64,000 nt of DNA from a bacterium (lineage in GTDB: Bacteria > Chloroflexota > Dormibacteria > Aeolococcales > Aeolococcaceae): the NCBI GenBank assembly GCA_021803465.1, contig JAJZLL010000049.1:33675-97674 (forward strand). Direction: 5' to 3'. Positions 9,430 to 39,777 of this stretch are shown here, piece by piece. Within the stretch, counting starts at the first letter, position 1. Every line of letters starts with the position of its first letter. Below the pieces are notes generated by a model that searched no databases, was not told the origin of the DNA, and was given only the letters and a program-made list of their open reading frames with translations. The translations under genes and the position numbers were made by a program.

Positions 9430-9556
9430 CGATCATCCCCTCATCACACGAAGTTCTGTGGTGTACGGGCCTGCAACCACAGTGCAGGCGTTCATCTCAC
9501 AAGTGTACGATGCTTGGTTCTTCCAATGCACCCCCCAAAATCTGTAGGATGGTTGC

Positions 9557-9940: not shown

Positions 9941-10008
9941 GTCCGTACCTCCCGGGCGGACAATGGGGCATTTTGGGTGTTCAATGTCCGGAACTCTCCG
10001 TACGATGA

Positions 10009-11088
10009 ATGCAGGGTCATCAATTGGAGCAGAGCATGTCCGGTACTGATTGGTGGAATAAGGCGAACATCGCGGAGCGCAATGCTGCCATCCAGCTTTT
10101 TTCCCTTCGTCTTGACTCCCTCTCATCAATTGATCCCTTAAGGACTGCTTCCTCGCACCATGTTGCTCGAGCATCCCACCGGCTCTCTGAGACACTTGAT
10201 GACACAGGGGCTGCATTTCTCCCCTTCCCTGCAGGAGCGCATCTGCGTCTTGCCTGGAAAGCCTTCCTCAGGCACCTCTCGCGGAAGGATATGGACACCA
10301 TCCACTCCATTGCACGTCTCACTGCTGCCACTTCTCCCTACCAGCCGCTGATCCGGAGGCTCACTCCGACGCTTTCCCGCATGCACCATGATGCGGTCGT
10401 AAGCGGAACGGCGAACGAGCCCAGATCATTCCGCATAACACTCAAGGGACGAGAAGTGGCGCTCACGCCAGCAAAGGCAGGCTCCCCAGAACTCCTTCGC
10501 AGTGCACTCCTCCGGGACCGGGTGCGGGACGTTCCCGGAATCCAGCACATCATTGGCATATCCCTCCCTGAGGGTGTGCTGCTCGCAGAGCCTGCTGACG
10601 GCCAGGTGCTCAGTGCGATGGCCCTGAGCGAGCTTTCCCGCCTCAGCACCACACAGGCGCATGAGAATCTCATCCGGACTGTCTCAGCACTTGCAGCGCG
10701 GGGCTGTTCCATACCCACAGATGCGCGCGATGTGCTTGTGAACGACTCCGGCTTCGTCTTTGTCTCACTCGATGGCAGCTCTCCAGGCACAACCCTTCCA
10801 GAGCAGCTTCTGGGCATGTACCGGCAGCTCCGCAACCCGTACAGCAGGACACTTTCTCCCTACAGCCCTGAACTCATCCGTCGTGATGCTGCCTCACAGT
10901 GGACACATGTCGCAACCACCTTTCTTGGTGCTGTGCGATCCGTCTGCGGAACCCGTATGGAGAAGTCCATCACTGCTGTCCTTGCACGAACGCATGAGCT
11001 TCCCCCCAACCTTTCCAGGACCACTCCAGAGAAGCCATATCCTGTACAGGGCACAAGCATGAACCTCCGTGGAGCAGCTCTTTCCTGA
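10009..11088 (+). CDS. Hypothetical protein, possibly kinase-like
   Basis: 359-aa ORF. DARDVLVNDSGFVFVSLDGS resembles a kinase catalytic loop (D-x4-N) followed by a DFG-like Asp. Speculative. Confidence 0.5.
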   Translation: MQGHQLEQSMSGTDWWNKANIAERNAAIQLFSLRLDSLSSIDPLRTASSHHVARASHRLSETLDDTGAAFLPFPAGAHLRLAWKAFLRHLSRKDMDTIHSIARLTAATSPYQPLIRRLTPTLSRMHHDAVVSGTANEPRSFRITLKGREVALTPAKAGSPELLRSALLRDRVRDVPGIQHIIGISLPEGVLLAEPADGQVLSAMALSELSRLSTTQAHENLIRTVSALAARGCSIPTDARDVLVNDSGFVFVSLDGSSPGTTLPEQLLGMYRQLRNPYSRTLSPYSPELIRRDAASQWTHVATTFLGAVRSVCGTRMEKSITAVLARTHELPPNLSRTTPEKPYPVQGTSMNLRGAALS

Positions 11089-11171
11089 TCTCCTGGACGG
11101 ACACTGTAGCCACTTCGGGATAATGGAACTGCAGACCAGTCTGCTGAAGATTGGACATGTGGAGAGACTCG

Positions 11172-12239
11172 ATGACAACGACACTTGTCGTGCTCCATGG
11201 AGACCAGACGGGAGAGGAACTCCTTAGCGAGACGCTCCGGCTTGCAGATCCCTCACTTCTCCACTGCGCATTCGAGCTCAAAGAGTATGACTGCTCGCTT
11301 GCACAGCGCAGGGCCACAGCCAATGGAGTCGTTCGCGATGCAGCTGATGCCATCCGAGAGTACCGTCTCGGACTCAAGGCTGCCACCATCACACCTGAGA
11401 AGGCGGATGATGTGGGGAGCCCCAACGCCCTGCTTCGCGAACGTATTGGAGCCCAGGTCATCGTCCGGACAGGTAGACCCATTCCCGGCATTTCCTCCTT
11501 GGGCTCAGTGGCAACACCGATAACTGTCGTGAGAATGGCCGTGGATGATGCGTACAATGCGAAAGAGTGGCGCGAGGAGCAGGACGGTAACATTGTCGCC
11601 TACCGGACTGAGCACATTTCCCGCACAACCTGCATGGCAGTGGCCCAAACAGCTTTCCACTATGCATCCTCGTGTGACGGCATTGTGTTCGGCGGTCCGA
11701 AATACACGGTTTCTCCCATCTATGAGGGACTCCTCAAGGAAATGCTTGATGCGGCCCACGAGACATGGCCCCATGTCCGCTACGAGCCACAGCTCATTGA
11801 CGCAACGTACGCACTCCTCCTGAGACAGCATGGAGCTCCTCTGGTGATACCCGCCCTCAACCGGGATGGGGACTGCCTTTCCGACCTTGTGCTGGCCCTC
11901 TTCGGATCCCTTGCCGGTGCAGAGTCGCTCATTCTCAGGTACGGGCCCTCCCATGAGAAGCCTGAGGTGGTAGTCGCGGAAGCACCGCATGGAACTGCCC
12001 CAACGCTGGAAGGAAAGAACATAGCCAATCCCATGGCCATGATCCTGGCCCTCGCCTCCACCCTCCAGTACGCGGACGACCCCAAGGCTGTCGATGCTGC
12101 TGGGCGCATACGGGCTGCCGTCAATGGTGTCCTCCACAATGGAATCCGCACTGCGGATCTTGGCGGCACAGCAACAACTTCGGGATTTGTCGATGCAGTG
12201 CTCGATGCGCTTATGGAGACCAGTCCCACCCTGTCATAG
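11172..12239 (+). CDS. Isocitrate/isopropylmalate dehydrogenase-family enzyme
   Basis: C-terminal GIRTADLGGTATTSGFVDAVLDAL and overall IDH/IMDH-like sequence. Probable start MTTTLVVLHGDQTGEEL. Confidence 0.8.
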   Translation: MTTTLVVLHGDQTGEELLSETLRLADPSLLHCAFELKEYDCSLAQRRATANGVVRDAADAIREYRLGLKAATITPEKADDVGSPNALLRERIGAQVIVRTGRPIPGISSLGSVATPITVVRMAVDDAYNAKEWREEQDGNIVAYRTEHISRTTCMAVAQTAFHYASSCDGIVFGGPKYTVSPIYEGLLKEMLDAAHETWPHVRYEPQLIDATYALLLRQHGAPLVIPALNRDGDCLSDLVLALFGSLAGAESLILRYGPSHEKPEVVVAEAPHGTAPTLEGKNIANPMAMILALASTLQYADDPKAVDAAGRIRAAVNGVLHNGIRTADLGGTATTSGFVDAVLDALMETSPTLS

Positions 12240-25879: not shown

Positions 25880-26683
25880 CTACCTGTCGTAATGGGAACC
25901 GTTTCTCCGGCCCTGGCCCCACTGGCTTCTGTTGCCGTATGCGCTGCCAGGACGTCGTGTCGCATTCTCGGGATTGGTGGGAATGACTGCCACCCGGCGC
26001 CGGGGCTCAGCCCCTGTGCTTTCCGTCCGGACCCCCTCCTCCTCCTGGAGAGTCACGTGGACCACGCGACGCTCATAGGGCTGCATTGGATCGAGAACGT
26101 ACCGCTCGCCGGTTTCCCTGACGCGCTGCGCAATCCTGTGGGCAAGACTCCGTACATACTCCTCACGTCGGAGCCGGTACCGCTCCACATCAATGTAGAC
26201 CTTGCGGGCGGAGTCGTCATCACTCGCAATCATGAGATGGATGAGTGTCTGGATGGCCTGGAGCGTCTCTCCTCTCCAGCCAATGAGGAGACCAAGATCG
26301 TCACCACTCACATCAAGAATGACTGGTGGCACATCTCCTGCTGGATGGCTTCCAAGATGGCCCCTCCTCGCTGTGATTGTGGCCTCGGCACCCATCTTGT
26401 CAAGCAGTCCAGAAAGAATTTCCCTGGCATGACTTGTGAGAGCATCCATCTTCCAGACTCGTACTTTGGCACGTGATCCGGAAACGGTCTCGCCGGGAAG
26501 TGCTGTGACGCCCTGGGAGAGAACGAGCACCTCCGCATCCAGTTCCTCAATGCCAAGCTTTGCGCACGCCTGAGCGACCGCTTCATCGACCGTGTCTGCC
26601 GCTTCCTCCAGCCCGCCATCATTGACAGGGACTGTCTGGACATAACCAGACTCGACCTGCTGTGTTGTGTCATCCATCTCCAT
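25880..26683 (-). CDS. jag: Jag/KhpB RNA-binding protein (KH + R3H)
   Basis: KH-like LLIGWRGETLQAIQTLI and C-terminal R3H region. Conserved position upstream of yidC. Confidence 0.8.
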   Translation of the reverse strand: MEMDDTTQQVESGYVQTVPVNDGGLEEAADTVDEAVAQACAKLGIEELDAEVLVLSQGVTALPGETVSGSRAKVRVWKMDALTSHAREILSGLLDKMGAEATITARRGHLGSHPAGDVPPVILDVSGDDLGLLIGWRGETLQAIQTLIHLMIASDDDSARKVYIDVERYRLRREEYVRSLAHRIAQRVRETGERYVLDPMQPYERRVVHVTLQEEEGVRTESTGAEPRRRVAVIPTNPENATRRPGSAYGNRSQWGQGRRNGSHYDR

Positions 26684-26728
26684 GTGTACTCCTCACCTTC
26701 GTGCTGTGTATTGGGTATCGCTAGGATG

Positions 26729-27646
26729 TCAGCTTTTCGAAGCAGCCTTTGCTGCCCCTCCCGTGCCCTTGCTACGGATTCGCTCCTCGATGCGCTTCTC
26801 CCGACGGGCAATGAGCTCCGCAGTACGCTTTGTGCCTGGGAACCAGGAGGGAACCGTAAGGTTTCCCCACCCCATGATCACGTACTGCTGGATAACGCTG
26901 AAGACAGTGATCGTGAGGTAGTAGAGCACAAGGCCCTGGGAGAACTCAAGTGCAAAAACAAAGAGCATGATGCCCGAGATTGCCCCCATCGACTTTCCCA
27001 TTGATGCGCCCATCTGCTGCTGCTGGTCCGTTGCTCCGGGAATGTTTGTCTGTCCAATCATGCGGAACTGCATGAAGGAAAGAATGCCCGTCACGACGGG
27101 AAGGAGAAAGAGGTCGATATGGATCACTATCGCGGGTATCATCCCGATGATGCCGCCCTGCACGCCATGGCAGCACGCGGTGAGTGCGGACTTGCTGAGA
27201 TCCGGAATCCAGAGAAACCCAGGATGCACGCGTATGTGCGCCGATGCGGAACGGATGGCATCGTACATTGCGAAGAGGAATGGAATCTGGATGAGAAGGG
27301 GCAGGCAGCCCGCAAGGTTCGCATACGGACTCATGCCAAGATCCTTGTACATCTTCATCATTTCACGGTTGAGCGCTTGGGGATCCCCCTTATGCTTCTT
27401 CCGCAGCTCCTTGAGCCGTGGCCCAAGGATCGTGTTGTCCGCAGCCATGTTGAGCTGTGTCTGGTACTGCCATCGAAAGAGGGGAAGGAGTATGAGGCGA
27501 ATCACAATCGTCACGATGAGAATGGCAAGCCCGAATGCGCCAACCGCATTCGCTGCCGGATTGCCAGCCAGCCAGTTTGCCAGATGCTCAATCGACCACT
27601 GGATGAGATTGTAGATCCCGACAAACGGTGCGATGATTGGGTTCAT
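26729..27646 (-). CDS. yidC: Membrane protein insertase YidC/Oxa1 (short form)
   Basis: Polytopic ~300-aa YidC-like protein with a basic C-tail, in the conserved rpmH-rnpA-yidD-yidC order. Confidence 0.85.
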   Translation of the reverse strand: MNPIIAPFVGIYNLIQWSIEHLANWLAGNPAANAVGAFGLAILIVTIVIRLILLPLFRWQYQTQLNMAADNTILGPRLKELRKKHKGDPQALNREMMKMYKDLGMSPYANLAGCLPLLIQIPFLFAMYDAIRSASAHIRVHPGFLWIPDLSKSALTACCHGVQGGIIGMIPAIVIHIDLFLLPVVTGILSFMQFRMIGQTNIPGATDQQQQMGASMGKSMGAISGIMLFVFALEFSQGLVLYYLTITVFSVIQQYVIMGWGNLTVPSWFPGTKRTAELIARREKRIEERIRSKGTGGAAKAASKS

Positions 27647-27963
27647 TGCTCCTTCTTCCTCGCTTGACGGTCACGCTTCAGACGCCGCGCGTCTCGCCAT
27701 GACATGTAGACATCTGGAACGGGGTCATATCCATAGCCCCCAAACGGTTGGCACCGAGCTATCCGACGCAGGGCGAGCCACCACCCACGTCTCCATCCAA
27801 ATCGCTCTATTGAAGTATACGCATATTGGGAACATGTCGGAGTGTACCTGCAGGAGCTCATGACGCCAAACACTGGGGAGAGCGTGTGCTTGTAGATCCT
27901 GATGACAATGAGGCTTGCCCTGGCTGCCAGGCCAGGGCGGTGGGGCTCAGATGTTGACATCAT
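27643..27963 (-). CDS. yidD: Membrane protein insertion efficiency factor YidD
   Basis: CRYTPTCSQYA...RCQPFGGYGYDP signature. Start chosen at an internal Met. Confidence 0.8.
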   Translation of the reverse strand: MMSTSEPHRPGLAARASLIVIRIYKHTLSPVFGVMSSCRYTPTCSQYAYTSIERFGWRRGWWLALRRIARCQPFGGYGYDPVPDVYMSWRDARRLKRDRQARKKEQ

Positions 27964-28321
27964 TGGCCACCTGGGAAGCAGGAATGCGCCTGAGTACGCC
28001 CTCGATCTCGGCGAGCAGCCTGTTCCAGGGAAGCTGGGCCACCTGCTCATCCCCCACAAGAACAATGTCACAACCGCTGGCAAGGCAATACCTCAACTCA
28101 TGGAGTGCTGCCTTGAGCCGTCTCCGGATCCGGTTCCTTCTCACTGCACCCTTCATCTTCCGTGAAGACACGGCAAACCTGACTTCTGCATCAGCAGGAT
28201 CATGCATGTGCACGAAGACTGCAACAGACCCAACGCGCCTGCGCACACCCTGTCTCCTCACCCGGCTGACCTCTGTCTTTGGAGTTAGCCGTGTCCACGT
28301 CTGTGTGGCTACTTGCCCCAT
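27947..28321 (-). CDS. rnpA: RNase P protein component
   Basis: Basic RNR motif [18 protein letters not shown]. Start overlaps the rpmH stop. Confidence 0.8.
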
Positions 28322-28455
28322 GACGGAGTGAGCACCTTCCGTCCCTTCAGGCGGCGAGCCTTGATAACACGACGGCCACCAGGACTTGACATCCGGACCA
28401 TGAATCCGTGGGTCTTTCCCCAATACCGGCGCTTTGGTTGAAAAGTTCGTTTCAT
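28309..28455 (-). CDS. rpmH: 50S ribosomal protein L34
   Basis: Manual translation [48 protein letters not shown]. Not resolved as its own ORF in the supplied track. Confidence 0.85.
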
Positions 28456-29428
28456 CTTGCCCTGTACCCTGCGTTATCCACCACTCTGGTGCGTACCCTT
28501 CAGTATACACAAGGCAGCATGTTCTCCCGCACTCAGGTGGCTAGAGGCTTTCGAGGACAGCTCTGTCCACCTCTGCGCTTGCTGCTTCCCGCTTCTTCCA
28601 TTCCCGGTCGTTGACAACCTCCCGCACGACATGGGAAAGATCGCAGAGGTTTCCCTCTTCCCGTGCCTGCCCGCATGCCGACCAGGTTGTCGATTGCGTC
28701 CCGTCCGTCCAGGTAAGACTGTCCAGGCTTGGTGCTGCAGCAAGTGTGAGCGTCGCACCAGTCCTCGTGGTGGCAGTGAGCACTGTCTCCCGGGATCCTG
28801 CTGGCTGCGGAACCTCGTCCCATATCAGCCTGCCCTGCCGTGTGAGCGCAATGACTGCTGCAAACACCTGGACGCCTCTCATGTCGTGATCTGGTGCGTT
28901 CCCATTCCCAACTTGCTCCGCATTATTGCTGTGCATGTCTTCCATCACCAACTCCTTTTCCGCTTTACCCTGTTCCTTTCGGGGCGTTCCGTTGCACCAT
29001 CGTATGCTATCCTTCACGATTCCTCGCAGCAGTCCCGTCCGCCAATGGGCTGCACGCCTGGAGAAACTCCATCAATGGTGCCCTTATGGATGACTGCACG
29101 TGATTCGCAAGATCCTCTCACACATTGGGCAACCTGCTCATCCATCAGGCGAAGGAACCAGGCATCTGGCCCGATGGAGTGCAGACAAACATGATCAAGG
29201 CTCCCGAGCAGGGCGCAGCAACCTGGACTTCCGGAAGCGCTATGCTGCCTGCAGCTTCAAGTGCCGAATGATCATGGGCCACTGCGCAATTCCCTCTGCA
29301 TTACCCCATGCTGTCTTCGCAGTATATCCACCCTGCTGGGACATGCTGACGGACAGTGTCGCAGCGTGAAGGAAGGTTGCCGCTTTGTCCGTGCCACGTC
29401 CGTGTCAGAAGGCTTAAACCAGAGACAA

Positions 29429-31594
29429 ATGAACGGGGTGCAGACCCCACCAACGTCCGACCCGCGACAGACGGACACGGTGGTTCGTTCGGTGAATCGG
29501 AGCACTCACATCCCCATGAGGGAGGTGATCTCTGCCGCAGAACTGGAATCGGAACAGGAAGACGCGAAGAAGAGGCTACGGGAGGTACAGCCGAAACGGT
29601 CAGACATAGGCATTGACCGTGACGACGTTACCGATGTGCTTCTTGCGACGGCTGAGCCTGAGGGCGGAAACCACGTACTTCTGTACGGACCCCGCGGAAC
29701 TGGGAAAACAACGAGTGCAGCACGTGCCCGCTTTCTCTCTCCGGATGAAACACCTCAGCCCGTGTATTCCATCACGCTCACAAGCGAACAGTCAGCAGCA
29801 TCGCTTTGGGGACACTGGATGCCCAAGGGCGACCAGTTTGTCTGGAATGATGGACCGATGCTTCGTGCCTGGAAGGAGGGAGCGCTTCTCGTCATCAACG
29901 AGATCGACCATGCTTCAGAGGACGTGCAGAACGTTCTCCATGTCCTCCTCGATGATCCCGAGGTCGCCCAGTTCACACTCCCCACAGGCGAGACTGTCCG
30001 TCCGGGAAAGGGTTTCCGCTGCATTGCCACAATGAACGGATTTCCTGAGGACATTGCAGAGCCCGTGCTCGACAGGTTCAGCCTCACAGTGGATGTGGAC
30101 CGTCCCAGCACAGAGATGATTGAGGCACTGCCAGAGGATCTCCGCGAGGAGGCACGCTGGCAGTACAAGCATGTCGATGATGAGCGTGGGGAGCCTGCAG
30201 TCACGTACAGGCAGCTCGAAATGTTCGCTTCCCTCAGGAAGACGCTGTCAGCAGAGACTGCTGCTGCGCTCGTATTCGGATATGACAAGTCCCGGGCCTC
30301 TCAGCTTGTGAAGGCTTCAGCCTCAGCTGCGCAGCATTTCCAGTGGGAACGCCAGTTCTCCGATCCCGAGGCATTCAATGCCCTGGAGCGTGAATGGGAG
30401 AAGCGCCATGCAGCACGCCAGGACGCTCTCGACAGGGAACTCCAGACAATTACTGCACGATATCCCAGTCCACCGGAACCAGTTCCTGTCACACCTGACC
30501 TGCCAGTGCGGCCAAAGGACTCCATTTTCCATCGGGGAGAAATTGCTGCATGGGAAGAGGCCTGTGAGCGCATCAGGAGTGAGGCCGACCACACGTACCG
30601 CACAGCACTGGACGCATGGTATGCGGACTCGAGCCGTATCGAGCGGACCCGGAGAGAGCTCGTCCGTCCCCTTCGTGAACACTTCTCCACGGAGGAGGAG
30701 GCTGACCCTCAGCCAATGAAAGCCAAGGAGCCGAAGCTGCACCATGTGAAGCAGGAGACGGAAGATCTCTCGGAGGCAGCACTCGCACCGGTTGCCAGGG
30801 ATGAACTGGGAAACTTCCTCAAAACATGCGCGCAGCCCGAAGGTGGAATGCATGCGCTCCTGTTTGGACCTCCCGGAACGGGGAAAACCTCGGCCGCAGT
30901 TGCTGCTGCTCTCACAGGCTCCACAGGATCCCAGCCCGTGTACTCTGTGACGCTCACGAGCGAACAGTCAGCAGCATCTCTCTGGGGCCACTGGGTGCCC
31001 AAAGGCGACAGCTTTGTGTGGAATGACGGTCCCTTCCTCATGGCCTGGAGGGAAGGAGCGCTTCTAGTTGTCAATGAGCTGAACCATGCGTCAGAGGATG
31101 TGAGCAACATGCTCCATGTGCTTCTTGACAATCCGGAGGTTGCCCAGGTGACTCTTCCAACCGGGGAAACTGTGAGGCCACAACAAGGATTCCGGTGCAT
31201 TGCAACAATGAATGGCACCATCGATGATGATGTTGCACCCGCAGTCCTTGACCGGTTCTCCATCATTTCACCTGTCATTGAGCCAAGCACTGCAATGATT
31301 GATGCACTTCCGGAACACCTGCGCGCCTTTGCCCGATACCTTTACTCCGACAAGAACCATGACCGTCTGGATGATGGATCTCCTGCAATCACCTATCGCA
31401 CCCTAAGCAAGTTTGGAGAACTTCTCGAGGACATCCCTGAGCCATTCGCAGCAAGCGTTGCAACCCATGGGGATCTCCAGCGAGCCCAGAGTCTCCTTGA
31501 AGCATCGGTGGGGGGACGGGCAAAGCTCATGGAGCAGAAGGGCAAGCAGTCCCCGGCAGCATCGGCTCCTTCCCAGCATGCGGAAGTGGAATAG
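29429..31594 (+). CDS. Tandem double-AAA+ ATPase of the MoxR/AAA_5 (dynein/midasin-related) type
   Basis: Two Walker A loops (LLYGPRGTGKTT, LLFGPPGTGKTS). Each is followed by LLV(I/V)NE(I/L)(D/N)HA, then CIATMNG and DRFS sensor regions. Start uncertain (track ORF begins 29261; candidates 29429, 29516). Confidence 0.8.
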   Translation: MNGVQTPPTSDPRQTDTVVRSVNRSTHIPMREVISAAELESEQEDAKKRLREVQPKRSDIGIDRDDVTDVLLATAEPEGGNHVLLYGPRGTGKTTSAARARFLSPDETPQPVYSITLTSEQSAASLWGHWMPKGDQFVWNDGPMLRAWKEGALLVINEIDHASEDVQNVLHVLLDDPEVAQFTLPTGETVRPGKGFRCIATMNGFPEDIAEPVLDRFSLTVDVDRPSTEMIEALPEDLREEARWQYKHVDDERGEPAVTYRQLEMFASLRKTLSAETAAALVFGYDKSRASQLVKASASAAQHFQWERQFSDPEAFNALEREWEKRHAARQDALDRELQTITARYPSPPEPVPVTPDLPVRPKDSIFHRGEIAAWEEACERIRSEADHTYRTALDAWYADSSRIERTRRELVRPLREHFSTEEEADPQPMKAKEPKLHHVKQETEDLSEAALAPVARDELGNFLKTCAQPEGGMHALLFGPPGTGKTSAAVAAALTGSTGSQPVYSVTLTSEQSAASLWGHWVPKGDSFVWNDGPFLMAWREGALLVVNELNHASEDVSNMLHVLLDNPEVAQVTLPTGETVRPQQGFRCIATMNGTIDDDVAPAVLDRFSIISPVIEPSTAMIDALPEHLRAFARYLYSDKNHDRLDDGSPAITYRTLSKFGELLEDIPEPFAASVATHGDLQRAQSLLEASVGGRAKLMEQKGKQSPAASAPSQHAEVE
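29636..30145 (+). repeat. Intragenic direct repeat copy 1 (AAA module 1, ~510 bp)
   Basis: ~80% nucleotide and ~75% amino-acid identity with 30812..31321. Confidence 0.8.
30812..31321 (+). repeat. Intragenic direct repeat copy 2 (AAA module 2)
   Basis: Copy of the 29636..30145 module; cagcccgtgt... begins both cores. Confidence 0.8.
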
Positions 31595-31605
31595 GAGGAT
31601 ATGTG

Positions 31606-33480
31606 ATGGCACAGACCTCTCACCGCAATGAACTTGGATACCTGGTGGATGGCTGGTCCCCTTCCGACAAACCATGGAAAGTGTCTCCCTCGGGAAACGG
31701 AGAGGGAGCGACCGATGCTGCAGCAAAGACTGCTGTCGTTCCACAGGCGGACAGCGCAGCACGACGTGCAGTCCGTCTGCACGAGGCCATCCATGCTGCA
31801 GTTGGTGAACAGCAGTTCCATTCTCCCTGGGAGAAGGCGCTCGAGGAGATGCGCGTTGATGCCATTGCCCATGGCCAGGGAGTGGACACGTCCCGACGGC
31901 TCGATGAGTATGATCTCTCGAGGCGTACTGTTCCCACTGTCCACGAGGACGCTGCACGCGTCTGGCTCCAGCTTGCGAGTGCTGCCTGCACTCCTGAGAG
32001 CCTCGCGAACGGCGCACCTGCTTTCCGTCCAGACATTCCTGGGGATCTGGAGAAGCTGACTGAGCGCGTGTTCGAGACGCTCTCTCCTGAGGAGAAGCGG
32101 GCAGTGACTGCTGCAGCTGAAACGCTCTACCATTCCCCAGCAGCCTCCACCCGTGATGTGCTGGCACGATCCCTGACGAGAAGATTCTCCGGCATGTCCA
32201 CAGGCGATCCGTCTCTTTCCCAGAACGGAAACGGGAAAGACGGACAGCCGGATGCTGGCTCACCGGGACAGCCTTCAACCTCAGGAAGCGAAAGGAATAC
32301 TCCTTCTGAATCCATGGCTCCGTCCCAGAACGCTTCAGCTGGTGAGGCACCATCTGAGGAGCAGACCAGCGCTTCCTCCGGCGAAGCCGGCTCTTCGGAG
32401 AACGTGGGAGTCGGCGAGCAGAATCCTGGAGCTTCCAGTGCTGAACAGCAATCCTCTTCAGGGGGAAGCGCCCCCACTCAGCCTTCACAAGGCGGAAGCA
32501 CAGGTGCCCTCCCTGCAACACCCAGCGACTCCATGGACAGTGGCAGCACCAAAGAGGCCAGTAGCCAGGACTCCGTCCAGAGTGGCTCTTCCAGCAGCGT
32601 TTCTGGAGAACGCACACGAGTCGAACCCCTCGGATGCACGGACGAGTCCACCCAGGAGGAAACCCAACAGCCAGATGGGTCGTGGAACACGTCCGGTCCC
32701 ATGCACATCCAGCATGCCAGTTCCCACCCACCGCAGGAGCTGCCCAAAAAGCTCTCCAATGGAAAGCGCGAGCATGATGGGCCACGGTCAACTGGCTCCG
32801 CTGGGAGTTCCACCCACTCCATAGGGCGACTTGTCATCGATGAGCATACGAACAGGAGCCACTCCGCCATCCCCATCACCCAGCCTGCAGGAGCAACGGA
32901 CACAGGACAGATCCCGGAGGTGATGGAGCGGTGGGCTGAGGACAAGCAGGTGTTCCGCACACGGCGTGGAGGGGGAACAATCCTCATCGACTGCTCTGGC
33001 TCGATGTCGTGGGACTGGGATGAGCTCAAGAAGGCAATCAAACGGTTTCCCACGCTTTGCATTGCCGTGTACAGTGGCCGCGACAGCAGTGGAAGACTCT
33101 GCATCATTGGCAAGGATGGCCGCTGGGCGGATTTCGATCCATCCCATATGAGCGGCGGCAACGAGGTTGACCTGGAAGCGCTCACCTGGCTCAGCTCCCA
33201 GAAGGGACCTCGGGTATGGCTGTCTGATGGATGCATATGCGGAGGACGGGTGGGAGCGCTCGGACTTGATGCTGCAGCCCGGGAGGCGCGGTCTCTTGCA
33301 GTCCATGCGAAAGTCATCCGGGCTGGGTCCATCGACGCGGCTCTTGGCGTCCTCCGTGTCCACGGCATGCGTGCTGTCAAGGGATCGTTCAATGCGCATT
33401 CGCCAGAATTCATTCCGAGCAGCTGGATTGAGTCGCGGTCCTACCGGCCGTACCGGTCCTCATATGGCATGGGCTTCTAA
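31606..33480 (+). CDS. vWA-domain protein with HExxH N-domain and long acidic S/G/Q/E-rich disordered linker; translationally coupled partner of the tandem AAA+ ATPase
   Basis: MIDAS motif ILIDCSGSMS near residue 470. HEAIH at residues ~60-64. Roughly 200 aa of low-complexity SGSERNTPSESMAPSQNASAGEAPSEEQTSASSGE.... AGGAGG RBS overlaps the upstream stop, 7 nt before ATG 31606. Confidence 0.8.
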   Translation: MAQTSHRNELGYLVDGWSPSDKPWKVSPSGNGEGATDAAAKTAVVPQADSAARRAVRLHEAIHAAVGEQQFHSPWEKALEEMRVDAIAHGQGVDTSRRLDEYDLSRRTVPTVHEDAARVWLQLASAACTPESLANGAPAFRPDIPGDLEKLTERVFETLSPEEKRAVTAAAETLYHSPAASTRDVLARSLTRRFSGMSTGDPSLSQNGNGKDGQPDAGSPGQPSTSGSERNTPSESMAPSQNASAGEAPSEEQTSASSGEAGSSENVGVGEQNPGASSAEQQSSSGGSAPTQPSQGGSTGALPATPSDSMDSGSTKEASSQDSVQSGSSSSVSGERTRVEPLGCTDESTQEETQQPDGSWNTSGPMHIQHASSHPPQELPKKLSNGKREHDGPRSTGSAGSSTHSIGRLVIDEHTNRSHSAIPITQPAGATDTGQIPEVMERWAEDKQVFRTRRGGGTILIDCSGSMSWDWDELKKAIKRFPTLCIAVYSGRDSSGRLCIIGKDGRWADFDPSHMSGGNEVDLEALTWLSSQKGPRVWLSDGCICGGRVGALGLDAAAREARSLAVHAKVIRAGSIDAALGVLRVHGMRAVKGSFNAHSPEFIPSSWIESRSYRPYRSSYGMGF

Positions 33481-33619
33481 GGCAGGACGGGATGGACACG
33501 TGATACACTGCACTTCGTTGTGAGGAGGATCCGGCCTGCGATCGGACGACTCCTTCCACCCGTGTACTGGGCGTCCTGCACACATTTCTGCCACCCGCAC
33601 GAGACAATTGTCAGCAAAG

Positions 33620-33639
33620 TTATCCACTTCCTGTGGATA
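33620..33639. promoter_or_regulatory. Pair of inverted DnaA boxes (TTATCCAC / TGTGGATA) in the dnaA promoter region
   Basis: agttatccacttcctgtggatagg, about 75 bp upstream of the dnaA ATG. Confidence 0.7.
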
Positions 33640-33711
33640 GGTTGGGGATAACTACGGTAGAATGCACGAAATGCGGGGGCTCTCCCCTCGCACATACAGC
33701 AGTGGACAGGC

Positions 33712-35127
33712 ATGGATGAAGTCACACGAGAACTCGACGGGGAAGTAACCTTTGATCCCCACCGGGTCTGGGAGATCGCACAGGAAGAGCTCAAATTCCA
33801 GTTGACGCGTCCCGGATACGAGACCTGGCTTGCGAACGCGAAGCTCGTCAATGCGGAAGGCGCTACCTACACGATCGGCGTTCCCACAAAGCTCGCACGT
33901 GACTGGCTCACAGAGCGGTATGCGCCACTCATCAAGGAGACTCTCGCAGGCATCCTTTCGAAGGAGTGCGACCTCGTCATCACTGTTGTCGACACTCCCG
34001 AGGCCCTTCCCATTCCCGATGATCCGCCAGTGCGGGAAGCTGAGGAGTTTTCCGCCTCCACATACGGCTCCCAGTTCGAAGATGACTCCAACGATGCAGT
34101 CATCAACCCAAACTTCACCTTTTCAACATTCGTTGTTGGCAACAGCAGCAGGTTCGCCCATGCAGCGTGCCTGGCTGTCGCGGAAGCTCCAGGGAAGGCG
34201 TACAATCCGCTCTTCATCTACGGCGGTGTGGGTCTGGGGAAAACACACCTCATGCACGCCATAGGAAACGCTGTGCGTGCGAAGACACGCCGTCCACCAA
34301 AAGTCGTGTATGTGACTTCAGAAAAGTTCACCAATGAGATGGTGCTTGCCATCCAGCAGGCCAAGACGAACGAGTTCCGGCAGAAGTACCGGTCCGTCGA
34401 TGTCCTCCTCATTGACGACATCCAGTTTCTTGCAGGCAAGGACCGAACCCAGGAGGAGTTCTTCCATACGTTCAATGCCCTTTACGAGGTTAGCAAGCAG
34501 GTCGTAGTCTCAAGCGACCGTCCACCGAAGGACATCCCCACGCTCGAAGACCGCCTCCGCAGCAGGTTCGAGGGTGGCCTCATCGCTGACATCAAGCCAC
34601 CGGACTTTGAAACCCGTCTCGCAATCCTCCACAGCAAACTCGGTGCGAAATCGTGGCTTGTGAGTGAAGAAGTGTGCGCATTCATGGCCCACCGCATCCA
34701 GAAGAACATCCGTGAACTCGAAGGTGCCCTCATCCGCGTTCTGGCGCATGCATCAATCAATCAGCGTCCTGTCTCCCTTGAGGAGGCACAGAGCATTCTT
34801 GCGGACATCATTCCCGATGCCACGCCCCTTTCCTCACTCAGCATTTCCGCCATCCAGCTCAATGTGGCTACGTACTTCGGCATTTCGCTTGAGGAAATGA
34901 ACGGGAAACGCCGTGACAAGCAGTTCGTCCTCCCACGACAGGTGGCGATGTACCTCTGCAGGGAAGAGACCGATGCATCCCTTCCCGCAATAGGAGCAGC
35001 ATTTGGCGGAAGGGACCATACGACTGTCCTCCATGCGATTGAGAAGATATCGGAACTCATGGGCGAGGATGAACGACTTGCATCGGATCTCGTCGCTCTT
35101 CAGACGCTTCTCCAGAACACACAGTGA
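33712..35127 (+). CDS. dnaA: Chromosomal replication initiator DnaA
   Basis: AAA+ Walker A GGVGLGKTHL, Walker B VDVLLIDDIQF, C-terminal DNA-binding signature (VAMYLCREETDASLPAIGAAFGGRDHTTVLHA). Confidence 0.95.
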   Translation: MDEVTRELDGEVTFDPHRVWEIAQEELKFQLTRPGYETWLANAKLVNAEGATYTIGVPTKLARDWLTERYAPLIKETLAGILSKECDLVITVVDTPEALPIPDDPPVREAEEFSASTYGSQFEDDSNDAVINPNFTFSTFVVGNSSRFAHAACLAVAEAPGKAYNPLFIYGGVGLGKTHLMHAIGNAVRAKTRRPPKVVYVTSEKFTNEMVLAIQQAKTNEFRQKYRSVDVLLIDDIQFLAGKDRTQEEFFHTFNALYEVSKQVVVSSDRPPKDIPTLEDRLRSRFEGGLIADIKPPDFETRLAILHSKLGAKSWLVSEEVCAFMAHRIQKNIRELEGALIRVLAHASINQRPVSLEEAQSILADIIPDATPLSSLSISAIQLNVATYFGISLEEMNGKRRDKQFVLPRQVAMYLCREETDASLPAIGAAFGGRDHTTVLHAIEKISELMGEDERLASDLVALQTLLQNTQ

Positions 35128-35383
35128 TGAGGGATAAACCTGTGGATGAAACTGCTCAGCCGGTGTGGAAACTGTGGACAGCGTGCACCCCTGTCACCTG
35201 CCTGTGGACAAACCGGCCAGATATGCACAGCGCCCCAACGTCAAAACCTGTTGTGCTAACACGCTTTTTTGAGTTATCCCCAGAATCCCCAGCTTATACT
35301 ACTGCATCTATTTGATATATCAGTTCATGGTTACTATTAATGTGTGTGCATAATTCCAACATCAGGCACGAAGGATGGTTGAT
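35128..35383. promoter_or_regulatory. oriC: Candidate oriC: DnaA-box cluster plus AT-rich unwinding element between dnaA and dnaN
   Basis: tgtggatga, tgtggaaac, tgtggacag, tgtggacaa and ttatcccca 9-mers, then the AT-rich run cttatactactgcatctatttgatatatcagttcatggttactattaatgtgtgtgcataattcc (~35293-35362). Confidence 0.75.
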
Positions 35384-36526
35384 ATGAAGTGTACGTTTCT
35401 TCCCTCACAGCTCAGCCAGGGCCTGTCCCTAGTCCAGCGGGCTGTTTCGCAGCGCTCCACCCTTCCTGTTCTGGGAAATGTGCTTATTGAGACTGTTCCT
35501 GGAGGTCTCAGACTTTCTGCAACAAACCTTGACCTCGCCATTGTCGACACTGTTCCTGCAGAAGTCGCAAAGGAGGGCAAGACGTCTGTCCCCGCAAAGC
35601 TGCTTGCGGACTACGTTGGATCCCTTCTTGAAGTTCCCTGCACCATGGAGCTCGACCCGCAGGGCCGTGTGCTCAACCTGACGTGCGGACTCCACAAGAC
35701 GAAACTTCATGTCATCGATCCTGCGGAATTCCCACCGCTTCCTGTTGCGGAGGGGGGGACATCCGTCATCGTTGATGGGAAGACGTTCGCGGCAGGCGTT
35801 GCCCAGACCGTCATTGCTGCAAGCAGCGATGAGACGGAACGCGTGTATACGGGCGTGCGGATCAAGGTGGATCCTTCAGCCCAGACAGTGACCCTCGCAG
35901 CCACGGACAGGCACCGTCTTGCCCTGAAAACGCTGCCTGCAAAGGAAATCCCTGATGGTGATGAGCAGCTCATAGCCATCGTTCCCGCCAAGCATCTGCA
36001 GGAAGTGGCAAGGGCAGTGAACGAGGCAAGGAAGGAAGTGGCCATCGCTCTTGGTGGCACGACCTCATTTGTGACATTCACGGTTGGGGATGTTGTGGTG
36101 ACAACGCGCACCATTGAGGGAAGATATCCCAAAGTTGAACAGGCCATCCCTGATGCTGCGGGGACAACGGTCGTGCTTCCAACTGCGGATCTGCGTCGGG
36201 AAGCAAAGACTGCATCCATCCTGGCCCGTGAGGAGTCGAATCCTGTGCGGATGTCCATAACCAGCGGAACGGTCGTGCTCACAGCGTGGTCGTCGGATGT
36301 CGGAGATGATGAAGTGCCCATACCTGCGGATGTCACAGGAGAGGGACTGGAGATTTCATTCAACTCAGGGTACTTCCTTGCTGCTCTGGAAGCGCTTGAC
36401 AGCGATACCGTCCACATGTCGTTCAACAAGGCTGAAGAACCTGGAACAATCCGTCCCCATGGACGGGAGGATTACGTTTACCTCCTCATGCCTGTCCTTC
36501 ATCCCTCTCTTCGGCCTTCCCTCTAG
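35384..36526 (+). CDS. dnaN: DNA polymerase III beta sliding clamp
   Basis: MKCTFLPSQLSQGLSLVQRAVSQRSTLPVLGNVLIE is typical DnaN. RBS aagga before ATG 35384 (track start 35375). Confidence 0.95.
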   Translation: MKCTFLPSQLSQGLSLVQRAVSQRSTLPVLGNVLIETVPGGLRLSATNLDLAIVDTVPAEVAKEGKTSVPAKLLADYVGSLLEVPCTMELDPQGRVLNLTCGLHKTKLHVIDPAEFPPLPVAEGGTSVIVDGKTFAAGVAQTVIAASSDETERVYTGVRIKVDPSAQTVTLAATDRHRLALKTLPAKEIPDGDEQLIAIVPAKHLQEVARAVNEARKEVAIALGGTTSFVTFTVGDVVVTTRTIEGRYPKVEQAIPDAAGTTVVLPTADLRREAKTASILAREESNPVRMSITSGTVVLTAWSSDVGDDEVPIPADVTGEGLEISFNSGYFLAALEALDSDTVHMSFNKAEEPGTIRPHGREDYVYLLMPVLHPSLRPSL

Positions 36527-36583: not shown

Positions 36584-37201
36584 GTGAGGTCTCAGCAGAC
36601 GCTCAGCGAGCCTGACAGGCGTCTTGTCGCTCATTGGGAAGCGGACTGCGCAGAGGGGGTTCTGGAACTGTTCGAGGAGGAATGCCCAACGGATACGCGG
36701 CCCCGTGCTCTCATAGAACGTGCCCGTGCGTTCGCAGGAGGAGAACTGGCTGCAGGGGATGCCATCCGCCAGCGGTTTGTCGGTGGTGTTTGCACGAATG
36801 AAGCGATGAGCGAAGCCGCCAGGGCAGCAGTCTGTCACATGGGAGCGCATGGATTGGGAGCAGCAGCGTATGCAGCAGTGGCAGTTGGCCTGGCTGCATT
36901 TGACGTTCCCGAAGCTGCAGGGAACGAGATTCGGTGGCATGTTTCCCACATGTCTGAAGCAGTGCAATGCGCTCTCAGCACGCTCCCGCCAGTGGGTGTG
37001 GACAGCTCTGGTCCCCTTGGCCCAGGACTTCTCTCTCGAGGGAAGCTCCTGGAAAACGTTCGTGAGCTCCAGCTCTCTCTTGCCCAGAGCAATTCACCCG
37101 GGAATGAGCGCAGTGGACTAGGATTCGCAGGAGAGGGATGGTTTCTGGGAAGCCAACAGCTACTGGCGGACCCGGAATGTGCTGATAGTGCCCTCGCCTA
37201 G
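36584..37201 (+). CDS. Hypothetical Ala-rich protein
   Basis: 205-aa ORF with reasonable composition. Overlaps the convergent DUF721 gene 3' end by ~40 nt. No motif recognised. Confidence 0.4.
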   Translation: MRSQQTLSEPDRRLVAHWEADCAEGVLELFEEECPTDTRPRALIERARAFAGGELAAGDAIRQRFVGGVCTNEAMSEAARAAVCHMGAHGLGAAAYAAVAVGLAAFDVPEAAGNEIRWHVSHMSEAVQCALSTLPPVGVDSSGPLGPGLLSRGKLLENVRELQLSLAQSNSPGNERSGLGFAGEGWFLGSQQLLADPECADSALA

Positions 37202-37462
37202 CCGCGCATTGAGCGTGTCGATGATGCGCTGCTGGTCATAGTGGAGCTGTGTCGCGAAAGATGCATTCGCTACCTGGACATTAAGGTGGCCACTGCGAAA
37301 AGAGACGTGCGTGCAGAGCGCGAAGAGGTCTGGTCCAAGGAGATCCCGCAGGGACTCCTCAACACGCGCAGTCGTGACTGGAGTGTACACGCCAAGGGAC
37401 CTGAGAGAAGCGTTGAGAAGGTCTCCGATATGATTTTCCCGATGGTGTTCCTGATCAGTCAT
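37160..37462 (-). CDS. DUF721-family protein (actinobacterial recF-neighbour, DciA-like)
   Basis: ~100-aa protein MTDQEHHRENHIGDLLNASLRSLG... immediately downstream of recF, the conserved position of DUF721 (Rv0004-like). ATGA-type overlap with the recF stop. Confidence 0.65.
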   Translation of the reverse strand: MTDQEHHRENHIGDLLNASLRSLGVYTPVTTARVEESLRDLLGPDLFALCTHVSFRSGHLNVQVANASFATQLHYDQQRIIDTLNARLGEGTISTFRVRQ

Positions 37463-38612
37463 CCGTGCTGGAAACCTCCCCATTCCTGACTGTCAGGTGG
37501 TGATCGGGGCGTGCGAGGCGCAGAAGGTCGTCTGCAGCATCCGTGGCTGTAATGAGGATTTGGGACGTTGCTGGAGCGCGGAGTCGCTCAAGAAACCGCT
37601 CCTGGCGATCCGCATCGAGCTCACTGAGCACATCATCCAGGAGGAGAAGCGGAGGAGTTTCCGTATGGTTCCTGAGAAGGTCGACAGAGGAGAGGAGCAG
37701 TGCGAGGACAATGCTTCTCCGCTGCCCCTGGGAGGCAACTGACCGTGCTGGCCGGGAATGGATGGAAAGGAGCAGATCATCCCGATGCGGTCCAAAGCTT
37801 GTGGAACCAGCCGCAACATCCCGGGAAAGCCGCGCATGCATTTCCGAGAGGAACTGCTCACGGGTTGGGAATTGACCGCTTTCCCTTCCACATGGAGCGT
37901 AGCAGAGAGCTGTCACTTCCGCATCGGGTGTGAAGGCGGACAGGTGATCCGTGAAGGCCCCTGCGAGTTCGGAGATGACCCTCTGGCGGTGCGCCATCAC
38001 AGCGATGGCGGAAGCGATGCACATTTCAGTGAATGCAGGGAGCTCCATTCCATCGCTTGTGCCATCCCGCATGGCACGGAGAAGATGGTTCCTCTGGAGA
38101 AGAGACCGGGAATACCTGAGGAGATCGTTCCTGCCATCGCCAGGGAGCTGCGTGAGAACGATGTCTAGGAAACGGCGTCTCTCTTCAGGTCCACCGGAAA
38201 CGAGACTGAGGTGGTCTGGTGTGAAGAGGACTGTGGGAAGGCGGCCAATGAGGGCGCTTGCAGCTACACTCTCCCCATTGAGCAGGAGACGCTTCCGAGG
38301 CATTCCCTCGCGCGCATCAATCTCCACGATGCACTCATCGAGTCCACGTTCACCTGTATCCAGCACACCGCGGATGCGGGAATATGTGGCATCCCACTTC
38401 ATGGATTCCCGAAGAGAGGCTGAACGCGGGGATTTCGTGAGTCCAATGGTTGCAACAGCCTCAAGAATGTTCGTCTTTCCCTGTCCATTGGCTCCAGTGA
38501 TGAGTGTGATTCCTCGGGGAATGCTGAGCTGGAGCCGGTTCATGTTGCGGAAGGCGACGAGTTCAAGCTCCGTAAGGAGCGTATCAACTGTGGCTGGTGC
38601 GTTACGGTGCAT
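37455..38612 (-). CDS. recF: DNA replication and repair protein RecF
   Basis: Walker A GANGQGKTNILEA, SMC-like signature and D-loop at the C-terminus. Start MHRNAPATVDTLLTELELVAFRN. Confidence 0.9.
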   Translation of the reverse strand: MHRNAPATVDTLLTELELVAFRNMNRLQLSIPRGITLITGANGQGKTNILEAVATIGLTKSPRSASLRESMKWDATYSRIRGVLDTGERGLDECIVEIDAREGMPRKRLLLNGESVAASALIGRLPTVLFTPDHLSLVSGGPEERRRFLDIVLTQLPGDGRNDLLRYSRSLLQRNHLLRAMRDGTSDGMELPAFTEMCIASAIAVMAHRQRVISELAGAFTDHLSAFTPDAEVTALCYAPCGRESGQFPTREQFLSEMHARLSRDVAAGSTSFGPHRDDLLLSIHSRPARSVASQGQRRSIVLALLLSSVDLLRNHTETPPLLLLDDVLSELDADRQERFLERLRAPATSQILITATDAADDLLRLARPDHHLTVRNGEVSSTDD

Positions 38613-39777
38613 TGGCGGATCCGGATGCGCTTTTTGAGGTGAACGATGTGATGAGATCTGCAATGTTGCTGCTTGCATGTGGCGTTGCCAGTGCACGTAT
38701 CCTCTCAAGCAGAGCCTGACGTTCAGATGGTGGGTACACAAGTACCTCGTTGATGTAGTCGACGACGCGGCGAGGATTTGGGGAATACCTGCTCACCCGG
38801 TGCTGACGGAGCCAGGTGACTGTTCCCCGTTCCTGTCCGGGAAGATACCAGCAGAGAACAAATGGAGTGCCACTGCACAGTGCCTCCATCACTGTTCCAG
38901 GGCCAGCTTTTGTGACGACGACATCCGCAGCACGCAGCCAGTCAACCATGTTCGAGACAAAGCCCTGGATGACAAGACTGCGGTCAGGGGGAGCAGCGAG
39001 CTTGACGAGTTCCTCCCGAAGGTGCTCATTCCTGCCACAAATGACAACAGTGTCAACAGGATCCTGCCTGTTGAGCAGTTCCTCAGTGATGCCCTTGAGC
39101 TTTCCTGCACCGTCAGCTCCGCCACAGATGACAACAAGAGGACGGTTGCTGAGGCAGCCAAGGTCGCTTCTCAGGCGCTTCTTTTCCTTCACATCAGGCA
39201 TGGGGGCTATGAATGAGGGTCCAATGGGAAGTCCGAAGACATGGCACCTGTCCGGACGGATGCCGTGCTGGAGACAGCTCCGCAGAGCCTGGGTGGTGGG
39301 GAGCACGATGGCATCCGCTTCAGGGGAAAACCAGAACGGATGGAGGTTGATGAAATCGGTGACGACGGTGAGGAAGGGAGGACGCTCCTCTGCTGGGAGG
39401 GCATGGAGGATGCGGCCAGTCACATGGTTGAGAAGGGGATGGAACGAAACGACTGCTGCAGGCGAGAGATCGTGAATGAGGGAACGGATGCCAGGAGCGA
39501 GCAGCGTGAGGATTGAACGTGAGACCCCTTCCACTGCGAGGGAGGAATTTGTCGCGTAGTAAATTCCTCCCCACAGCCATCGCACATGGCGCGCAATGGG
39601 CGCATAGAGGCCCGTTGTCGCTCCAGCGAAGGCTGGTGCTGCCTCGACGAATGGATCAATGATGGAGATGTCGTACTGGTCAGGATGGCTGGCATTGAGT
39701 GCGGCGGCAACCGCATTTGCAGAGGCCCGATGGCCTCCGCCTGTATCCGCTATGAGAAAGAGCAGTCGCTGCGTCAT
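38602..39777 (-). CDS. GT28/MGDG-synthase-like glycosyltransferase (diacylglycerol glycosyltransferase family)
   Basis: N-terminal LFLIADTGGGHRASANAV motif and GT-B fold C-terminal half. Overlaps the recF start by 11 nt (operon). Confidence 0.75.
   Translation of the reverse strand: MTQRLLFLIADTGGGHRASANAVAAALNASHPDQYDISIIDPFVEAAPAFAGATTGLYAPIARHVRWLWGGIYYATNSSLAVEGVSRSILTLLAPGIRSLIHDLSPAAVVSFHPLLNHVTGRILHALPAEERPPFLTVVTDFINLHPFWFSPEADAIVLPTTQALRSCLQHGIRPDRCHVFGLPIGPSFIAPMPDVKEKKRLRSDLGCLSNRPLVVICGGADGAGKLKGITEELLNRQDPVDTVVICGRNEHLREELVKLAAPPDRSLVIQGFVSNMVDWLRAADVVVTKAGPGTVMEALCSGTPFVLCWYLPGQERGTVTWLRQHRVSRYSPNPRRVVDYINEVLVYPPSERQALLERIRALATPHASSNIADLITSFTSKSASGSANAP

Follow-up and report, generated by a model that had tools for sequence, protein, structure and literature searches.

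Among the described motors that pair an AAA_5/MoxR-type ATPase with a partner carrying a vWA domain, the cobalt chelatase pair CobS-CobT has recently been characterized in a 2026 preprint. According to this work, CobT (637 amino acids, aa) starts with a peptidase M48C-like N domain of one helix, a three-stranded sheet and eight helices, followed by a disordered linker of about 90 residues and a vWA-variant domain with the MIDAS residues D422, S424, S426, N518 and D546. A shaft preceding the vWA core of CobT enters the CobS ring, with the N domain docked on the lid of CobS. A CobS hexamer binds up to three CobT, and the AAA to adaptor ratio of 2:1 is proposed as ideal rather than observed. The structure of NorQ-NorD follows the same principle, with a finger of NorD in the AAA pore in place of the CobT shaft. 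A pair of a MoxR ATPase and a metallopeptidase-vWA protein is also known from phages, where it is called ‘cobST’ or ‘peptidase’ plus cobS. Descriptions of it exist for T4-like cyanophages, for haloviruses and for jumbo phages of group 2.2 (Iyer et al. 2021, PMC7824862; Liu et al. 2021, PMC8651126). The version of the group 2.2 jumbo phages was described as a MoxR-vWA chaperone in which an N-terminal metallopeptidase is fused to the vWA subunit (PMC7824862). Two conflicting readings of the function of this cassette are found in the literature, cobalt chelation and a virion-assembly chaperone/protease (PMC8651126; PMC7824862). Here, we describe a two-gene module of similar build located between rpmH and dnaA in a 64-kb stretch of DNA (the window) from a bacterium that was placed by its DnaA homologues in Candidatus Dormibacteria, uncultured bacteria of soil.

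The explanation that we favour, and regard as reasonably probable, is that the module is a two-gene MoxR-vWA motor and adaptor, a phage-type CobS/CobT-like cassette. In this view, it was acquired once by an ancestor of a narrow Dormibacteria clade, inserted between rpmH and dnaA upstream of the dnaA-proximal box cluster and kept by selection. On the left, the insertion is flanked by rpmH (ribosomal protein L34; 28309-28455, minus strand), which was recognized from its open reading frame (ORF) translation and a Pfam Ribosomal_L34 match of the orthologue in the related locus L001, and on the right by dnaA (33712-35127, plus strand; Pfam Bac_DnaA, 1.5e-71). According to the ORF list, the ATPase gene extends on the plus strand from 29429 (ATG, 721 aa) or 29516 (692 aa, the start used in public annotation) to 31594. 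The gene of the partner, a CobT-like adaptor of 624 aa, follows on the same strand from 31603 (GTG) or 31606 (ATG) to 33480. These are the only two genes between rpmH and dnaA, in the window as well as in L001. Both form a tight operon: an AGGAGG ribosome-binding site (31593-31598, plus strand) overlaps the TAG stop of the ATPase gene, and the partner ATG at 31606 lies seven bases downstream (junction sequence GAATAGGAGGATATGTGATGG). By this junction, the partner gene is translationally coupled to the ATPase gene. The observation made in an earlier, preliminary description of this DNA is thereby confirmed, both for the position of the pair and for the ribosome-binding site embedded in the upstream stop.

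To place the module in its lineage, the rpmH-dnaA intervals of related genomes were compared. The arrangement rpmH-ATPase-partner-dnaA is present in the closest relatives, which are metagenome-assembled genomes of the same clade (L001, L002, L215 and L216). Carriers of the module are the window species, L001, L002 and one Logan contig, all of them belonging to one DnaA cluster (≥90%) with 96% DnaA identity to the window. From this cluster, DnaA identity steps down to 78% and then to 71% or less. In L088 (78%), yidC-yidD-rnpA-rpmH is followed by dnaA after about 340 bp and the module is absent. It is also absent from L089 (71%) and L090 (68%). In these two, the full synteny extends from parAB past recF, and rnpA is separated from dnaA by about 490 bp. 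A triplet of DnaA boxes (TTATCCACT, TGTGGATAG and TGGGGATAA; 33620-33651) upstream of dnaA is kept in L088, L089, L090 and the window. As the triplet occurs in conserved form in module-bearing and module-free Dormibacteria alike, it was not damaged by the insertion, and since the outgroups have the triplet and lack the module, the insertion took place between position 28517 and the triplet. Position 28517 is the end of the blastn synteny block on the rpmH side, whose spacer (28456-28517) is conserved in L001 and L002 and contains one DnaA-box-like site (TTATCCACC, 28474-28482). The module is a lineage-specific insertion and not ancestral, in agreement with what had been proposed for it. Scars of the insertion, which had been considered as well, were not found, as the locus shows no meaningful flanking direct or inverted repeats, no att-like repeats and no integrase.

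The module has been maintained since its acquisition. In at least four independent assemblies, which differ by a synonymous rate (dS) above 1, neither ORF is disrupted, and the G+C content of the module is that of its flanks. Between the window and L001, the ratio of non-synonymous to synonymous substitution rates (dN/dS) is 0.059 for the ATPase (modules 0.04 and 0.03) and 0.133 for the partner (each folded domain 0.065; linker 0.26), compared with 0.008 for dnaA and 0.024 for yidC, all of these values being approximate because dS exceeds 1 and is saturated. The module is an old, maintained acquisition under purifying selection and not a decaying remnant. A remnant of a prophage or mobile element that has no present function would explain the isolated two-gene island beside a variable spacer, where integrase and att-like repeats are missing. 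This explanation is nevertheless extremely improbable in view of the intact ORFs at this divergence, dN/dS values of 0.03-0.07 in all folded domains, the retention of all catalytic-type motifs and a G+C content equal to that of the flanks.

The first gene encodes a tandem AAA+ ATPase, as the preliminary description had stated. Pfam AAA_5 is matched twice (E 1e-39, 136 bits against a cut-off of 22), with full-length matches at residues 82-217 and approximately 475-610 in the numbering of the 721-aa form. Module 1 (29648-30280, plus strand) contains Walker A GPRGTGKT (29687-29710), a Walker B variant LLVINEID (29885-29908), sensor-1 (30020-30040) and LDRFS (30068-30082) and has a dN/dS of 0.043. 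Module 2 (30797-31465, plus strand; dN/dS 0.028) contains Walker A GPPGTGKT (30866-30889), the Walker B variant LLVVNELN (31061-31084), sensor-1 (31196-31216) and LDRFS (31247-31261). Sensor-1 reads CIATMNG and the arginine motif LDRFS in both halves, which share 57% identity. The two modules are separated by a helical hairpin linker (30287-30703, plus strand; model helices at residues 258-315 and 340-396). It is the fastest-evolving part of the ATPase, with 57% identity to L001 and a dN/dS of 0.11. In the AlphaFold2 model, which has a predicted local distance difference test (pLDDT) score of 77.7, two AAA+ modules with matching secondary-structure pattern are joined by this long hairpin. Each of the modelled modules has the two beta-hairpin inserts (helix-2 insert and pre-sensor-1) typical of the AAA_5/MoxR clade; the hairpins are predicted at 99-112 and 491-504, and short paired strands at about 153-161 and 545-553 (pLDDT around 80, model only). 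In both modules, Walker B reads hhhhNE instead of hhhhDE, so that the glutamate is retained and the Mg-coordinating aspartate is replaced by asparagine. The NE form is common to the close homologues and one large viral group and DE is found in other relatives, i.e., the substitution is a family-level one.

The nearest PDB sequences to the ATPase are Midasin (3.5e-29), NorQ (1e-17) and CbbQ. Among phage protein families, it matches phrog_16448 (1.7e-54) and phrog_249, ‘porphyrin biosynthesis’, i.e., phage CobS (1.8e-47). A tandem fusion is found in the more distant homologue P0004 as well, where the two modules are 56% alike, compared with 41-46% to the modules of the window. Because the P0004 modules are closer to each other than to either window module, the tandem AAA fusion probably arose more than once. 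A single ancient tandem duplication was judged unlikely from the same comparison, with gene conversion as a possible alternative.

At the start of the ATPase gene, a conserved leader was identified by DNA alignment with the relatives (29382-29515, plus strand), which would be translated as an N-terminal extension if 29429 were the start codon. Its DNA identity to the relatives is about 97%, compared with a background of about 80%. The region 29420-29560, covering leader and first ATPase codons, has 93-97% DNA identity to L001 and L002 versus about 80% elsewhere, third codon positions included. The leader could be a start-site or regulatory element. An RNA element was considered and dropped as unsupported, as Rfam gave no match and the folding z-score was 0.19, with three distinct sequences being too few for covariation. 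A perfect GGAGGTGA is located immediately downstream of the ATG at 29516.

The second protein consists of two folded domains and a long linker. Its structure was modelled with AlphaFold using an alignment of 59 relatives. In this model, the N-terminal domain (residues 10-195; 31633-32190, plus strand) is predicted as one helix, a three-stranded sheet and seven helices (pLDDT >92). It carries HEAIH (31780-31794) and EEMR (31843-31854), which together correspond to a gluzincin-like HExxH...EExR motif. The pattern is R-x-H-E-x-x-H and then E-[ED]-x-R sixteen residues past the second histidine. H59, E60, H63, E80, E/D81 and R83 are conserved in 48-54 of the 59 relatives. Foldseek gave weak matches of this domain to the small metallopeptidases ArdC, PprI and abylysin and to the PolyVal domain. 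With hhalign, the partner-family profile aligns to the ‘peptidase’ beside cobS of cyanophage P-RSM4 with 84% probability (E 7e-6, 75 columns), which is moderate support, and the alignment spans the sheet and the HExxH...EDxR motif. Residues 199-398 (32200-32799, plus strand) form a Ser/Gly/Glu/Pro-rich linker that is predicted to be disordered (pLDDT <50). It is variable in length and sequence, with 46% identity to L001 and the dN/dS of 0.26 given above.

The vWA/MIDAS domain follows at residues 400-610 (32803-33435, plus strand; pLDDT 85-98) and is C-terminal, with the last ordered residue at about 610 of 624. The partner model contains the Rossmann-like alpha/beta fold of vWA domains, and the MIDAS residues are encoded on the plus strand by DCSGS (32989-33003), the segment of N519 and D522 (33154-33171) and that of D541 (33220-33231). 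D462, S464, S466, N519, D522 and D541 are invariant in the 59 sequences. Model fold and invariant residues thus bear out the vWA-MIDAS assignment that had been made for the second gene. Profile searches, which had been suggested as a check for both proteins, recovered the ATPase (AAA_5) and not the partner, to which no vWA profile was assigned. No match of the partner was obtained with Pfam, NCBIfam or PADLOC models, and none of the 59 relatives matches Pfam either. A search of the partner-family profile against PDB sequences returned low-complexity noise and no vWA domain. The partner matches phrog_33218 (1.1e-8), as does its relative P0014 (5e-25). The N-terminal HExxH domain and the long disordered linker, which together make up the CobT architecture, had been missed in the preliminary description.

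Compared by published description, the pair resembles CobS-CobT in several respects: an AAA_5-type ATPase is combined with a partner of about 630 aa that has an M48C-like N domain, a disordered acidic linker and a C-terminal vWA variant. D462, S464, S466, N519 and D541 of the partner mirror D422, S424, S426, N518 and D546 of CobT. The closest single-AAA version of the pair, found in L003 at 9007-11914, encodes proteins of 330 aa and 637 aa and is similar to CobS-CobT in these sizes. In contrast to CobS-CobT, the ATPase of the window is a tandem fusion, Walker B has NE, and the linker is twice as long. None of the CobS/CobT models (PF06213, PF11775, TIGR cobS/cobT) was matched at significance by either gene. 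The sole cobaltochelatase row was NCBIfam TIGR02442, sub-threshold with 16.5 bits against a cut-off of 779.45. As no CobS/CobT profile was matched at significance, we do not call the pair a member of that enzyme family; it is CobS/CobT-like in build and probable working.

It might be argued that the pair is a true, divergent CobS-CobT cobaltochelatase motor, which inserts cobalt in B12 synthesis together with a CobN/ChlH-type subunit encoded elsewhere. The CobS/CobT architecture including the D-S-S-N-D MIDAS, the match of the ATPase to phrog_249 and, weakly, to annotated cyanophage CobS, and the position of the L003 pair among B12-using genes are consistent with this, and for viral cobST it has been proposed that host CobN is hijacked (PMC8651126). 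We consider this explanation unlikely. Besides the unmatched CobS/CobT models of Pfam and NCBIfam, no CobN-sized ORF was found in the 64-kb window and no B12 gene among the ten large ORFs scanned, the conserved HExxH suggests catalysis other than chelation, and the phage cassettes lie in DNA-metabolism modules. The neighbours of the L003 pair use B12 and do not make it, and they represent a single locus. Within about 10 kb of this pair, genes for MetH, a PduO-type cobalamin adenosyltransferase, MeaB and methylmalonyl-CoA mutase were found, all B12-dependent or B12-handling, which may be chance.

Several other systems were compared with the module. NorQ-NorD, CbbQ-CbbO, RavA-ViaA and CoxD-CoxE are distinguished from the module by the lack of nor, cbb or cox client genes here (the neighbours are rpmH and dnaA), by the different N domain (HExxH) and the long disordered linker of the partner, and by the fact that the module is not housekeeping in this lineage. 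CbbQ_C is not among the Pfam families shown for the ATPase. A housekeeping identity of the pair, which the preliminary description had named as the finding that would speak against its view, was not obtained because neither gene carries a NorQ/NorD or CoxD/CoxE annotation. Midasin/Rea1 is the best PDB sequence match and shares covalently linked AAA_5 modules and a MIDAS domain on a long acidic linker (Midasin). It is a single eukaryotic polypeptide of 4,800 aa with six AAA modules, whereas here two modules are present and the MIDAS is on a separate protein. The likeness to Midasin is one of principle only.

The partner belongs to a very large family. An exhaustive HMMER search revealed 1,941 clusters (50% identity), of which 722 reached an E-value of 1e-30 or better. 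Most members have 400-520 aa and match the profile at both ends. The family is mostly found on phage-like contigs and has no Pfam model. Word-based searches recovered just 8 and 6 homologues. Two short peptide patterns alone led to 138 IMG/VR viral contigs encoding relatives, and a metagenome scan yielded at least 40 loci. An AAA_5 ATPase is encoded directly upstream on the same strand in 74 of the 80 loci with enough upstream sequence, and overlapping or within 1.8 kb in four more of those 80. In L085, L086 and L172, the pair is located inside long one-directional arrays of small unannotated ORFs, as is typical of phages, and L086 also carries a DnaB gene. In L003 and L171, it lies in bacterial-looking DNA. 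Two full cassettes in tandem (ATPase-partner-ATPase-partner) were observed at 4234-8960 of L098, an IMG/VR contig of 572 kb, and the second partner of this contig matches phrog_33218 (6e-24).

The module shares with the phage cobST-like cassette the same two domain architectures, PHROG matches of both genes, the adjacent ATPase and the HExxH domain. It differs in being fixed in a bacterial chromosome without other phage genes and in its tandem ATPase. In P-RSM4, the gene order is different as well, with the peptidase gene before cobS there and the ATPase gene first here. No match was obtained by tblastn in isolated phages (50,697 records) with the partner, a viral partner, the vWA domain or, at E up to 1e-10, the ATPase as query, and the vWA domain had none in plasmids either. 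A weak match to annotated (cyano)phage CobS appeared only when one AAA module alone was used as query with E up to 1e-3. Since no relative of the partner occurs in the 50,697 isolated-phage records, the Dormibacteria pair represents a distinct, deeply divergent branch.

The genes next to the viral cassettes point to DNA metabolism. Within the main viral group, neighbours were scanned for 21 viral loci; an exonuclease follows the cassette in 16 and a single-strand annealing protein (SSAP) in 5. In P-RSM4, the cassette is located between gp46 and gp45/gp44. The neighbours found here, i.e., exonuclease, SSAP, clamp and clamp loader, fit neither the cobalt-chelation nor the virion-assembly reading well.

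One could suppose that the target of the module is replication initiation or the replisome, for example through remodelling or cleavage of DnaA, DnaN or a helicase loader, and that its place beside dnaA reflects this function. In favour of such a role, the module immediately precedes the dnaA box cluster, with the likely unwinding element at a distance of about 1.7 kb, its phage relatives occur in replication/recombination modules (gp46 and gp45/gp44 in P-RSM4, exonuclease and SSAP in the viral loci scanned, and the contig with DnaB), and the leader of the ATPase gene is unusually conserved. If this were true, the rpmH-dnaA location would be functional, the cassette might tune or take over replication through an initiator, clamp or loader protein, and the approximately 1,900 clusters labelled ‘porphyrin biosynthesis’ or ‘peptidase’ would have to be re-assigned. 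However, none of 125 related loci lies near dnaA, dnaN, yidC, rnpA or recF, and sister Dormibacteria replicate without the module. Furthermore, unrelated genes are routinely mixed in phage early regions, and the two proteins lack a DNA-binding domain and do not detectably resemble known DnaA regulators. A role in replication is very unlikely on these grounds, and the origin-related action that the preliminary description had considered finds no support. The location beside dnaA is best read as a tolerated integration site rather than a functional link.

The same description had proposed an accessory defence or conflict module. MoxR-vWA ternary conflict systems (Kaur et al. 2020, PMC7159879) have the core of a MoxR-class ATPase and a vWA protein in common with the module, and the ATPase matches Pfam bpMoxR weakly, above the cut-off (35 versus 27 bits). 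Such systems are defined by a third component (VMAP, iSTAND, FtsH or beta-propeller) and a variable effector C-terminal to the vWA domain (PMC7159879), whereas the module here is binary, lacks the third component and carries no C-terminal variable effector on its vWA protein. In PADLOC-DB 2.0, the best matches of the ATPase reach about 32 bits (mad8, IetA) and are confined to 19-43 residues at the P-loop, and the partner has none. An anti-phage role would mean that a phage-derived cassette serves superinfection exclusion or abortive infection, with the AAA+/vWA proteins sensing a phage protein and the HExxH domain as proteolytic effector. The mainly phage-borne cassette family, from which hosts co-opt such genes, would fit this idea, the conserved HExxH...EExR could supply the effector activity, and there are other accessory insertions near the origin, namely an ORF of 134 aa and an immunity gene of the Imm5-like type, neither of which is present in L001. 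On the other hand, the module lies outside any defence island, its domains are under strong purifying selection with no diversification, and the phage cassettes sit with exonuclease, SSAP and replication genes, as would be expected for a function of the phage itself. In sum, an anti-phage role is rather unlikely.

The interpretation given in the preliminary description is therefore only partly supported. Its novelty is overstated when the pair is called a largely uncharacterised conflict module located at the origin, because the partner has the CobT architecture and the cassette family to which the pair belongs is very large and mostly borne by phages. The MoxR-vWA motor in the phage CobS/CobT-like form is already known. 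What is new here is that the AAA modules are fused in tandem and that the pair has a fixed place in the chromosome, between rpmH and dnaA. Neither a new kind of system nor a link to origin function is shown.

For the working of the favoured CobS/CobT-like motor and adaptor, a mechanism can be proposed from NorQ-NorD and CobS-CobT. Three tandem-AAA polypeptides would assemble into a pseudo-hexameric ring, and a ring of three would imply a polypeptide ratio of 1:1 and an AAA to adaptor ratio of 2:1. A conserved hairpin and extension preceding the vWA core (partner residues 400-450) might enter the ring pore, while the N domain of the partner would dock on the AAA lid and a client protein would be held at the MIDAS face. 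ATP hydrolysis would then pull the linker, so that the client is remodelled, e.g., for metal/cofactor loading or assembly. As the HExxH...EExR motif is conserved, the client would perhaps also be cleaved.

Several points weigh against the explanation of the module as an acquired phage-type motor and adaptor, in addition to the saturated dS mentioned above. The activity of the ATPase is assumed, because the Walker B aspartate is replaced by asparagine in both modules. No CobS, CobT or vWA model of Pfam or NCBIfam is matched by the partner, and its suggested likeness to CobT draws on architecture and one preprint. Ring stoichiometry and pore insertion are analogies to the systems named above, and no client or third gene is visible at the locus. 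The closest relatives (P0011/P0005, P0012, L003 and L171) are on short or bacterial-looking contigs, and the direction of transfer, from phage to bacterium, is suggested by the distribution of the family and not by a rooted tree.

The origin context around the module is real. The genes jag, yidC, yidD, rnpA and rpmH are located on the minus strand at 25880-28455, dnaN on the plus strand at 35375-36526, and a DciA-like gene and then recF follow downstream on the minus strand. The minimum of the cumulative GC skew is at about 33-35 kb. The spacer between dnaA and dnaN (35141-35353) contains four DnaA-box-like sites and an AT-rich stretch at about 35286-35350. By these features, it is most likely the unwinding part of oriC, at a distance of about 1.7 kb from the module. 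Across 29000-34000, the AT skew is 0.08-0.12, compared with near zero over most of the window, and G+C is unchanged. This raised AT skew across the module may be due to amino-acid composition or foreign origin.

Between the rpmH-proximal spacer and the leader, the window has a species-specific variable spacer of 864 bp (28518-29381), compared with 147 bp in L001 and 258 bp in L002. It shows no similarity to L001, L002, all other fetched loci or the module itself. The 134-aa ORF is located in this spacer (28541-28945, minus strand) and is annotated as a gene in two public assemblies. No family match was obtained for it, the best being a sub-threshold one to Pfam CobT_C (E 0.084). The CobT_C match (E 0.084) to a 158-aa ORF of the variable spacer was treated as noise and this ORF as unrelated to the module.

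On the other side of the origin, the DciA-like gene and recF (37160-38741, minus strand) are opposite in strand to dnaA-dnaN. This arrangement is common to L001, L089 and L090, i.e., to all Dormibacteria loci examined. The Imm5-like gene (36584-37201, plus strand; 205 aa, Pfam Imm5_like E 1.7e-19), which encodes a putative polymorphic-toxin immunity protein, is located in the interval from dnaN to DciA and overlaps the end of the DciA-like gene. The segment 36529-37154 is absent from L001, where DciA directly follows dnaN, and represents a second insertion at the origin that is specific to this species. Between dnaN and DciA, L089 has three unrelated genes (ADH, ABC transporter and MFS), and the dnaN-DciA junction is consequently also variable. 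About 10 kb from the origin, a superfamily-1 helicase of 867 aa (43808-46411, plus strand; Pfam AAA_11, AAA_12) is encoded, which is unrelated to the module.

For the Dormibacteria clade, the locus provides a clean, datable case of foreign genes that entered the rpmH-dnaA interval without disturbing the DnaA-box cluster and were then selectively kept. The partner family, with about 1,900 clusters that are mostly phage-borne and have no Pfam model, consists of CobT-like HExxH-vWA adaptors that are almost always accompanied by an AAA_5 ATPase. The tandem AAA fusion fits the 2:1 ratio proposed as ideal for CobS:CobT-type machines and would be a natural construct for structural work on MoxR-vWA machines.

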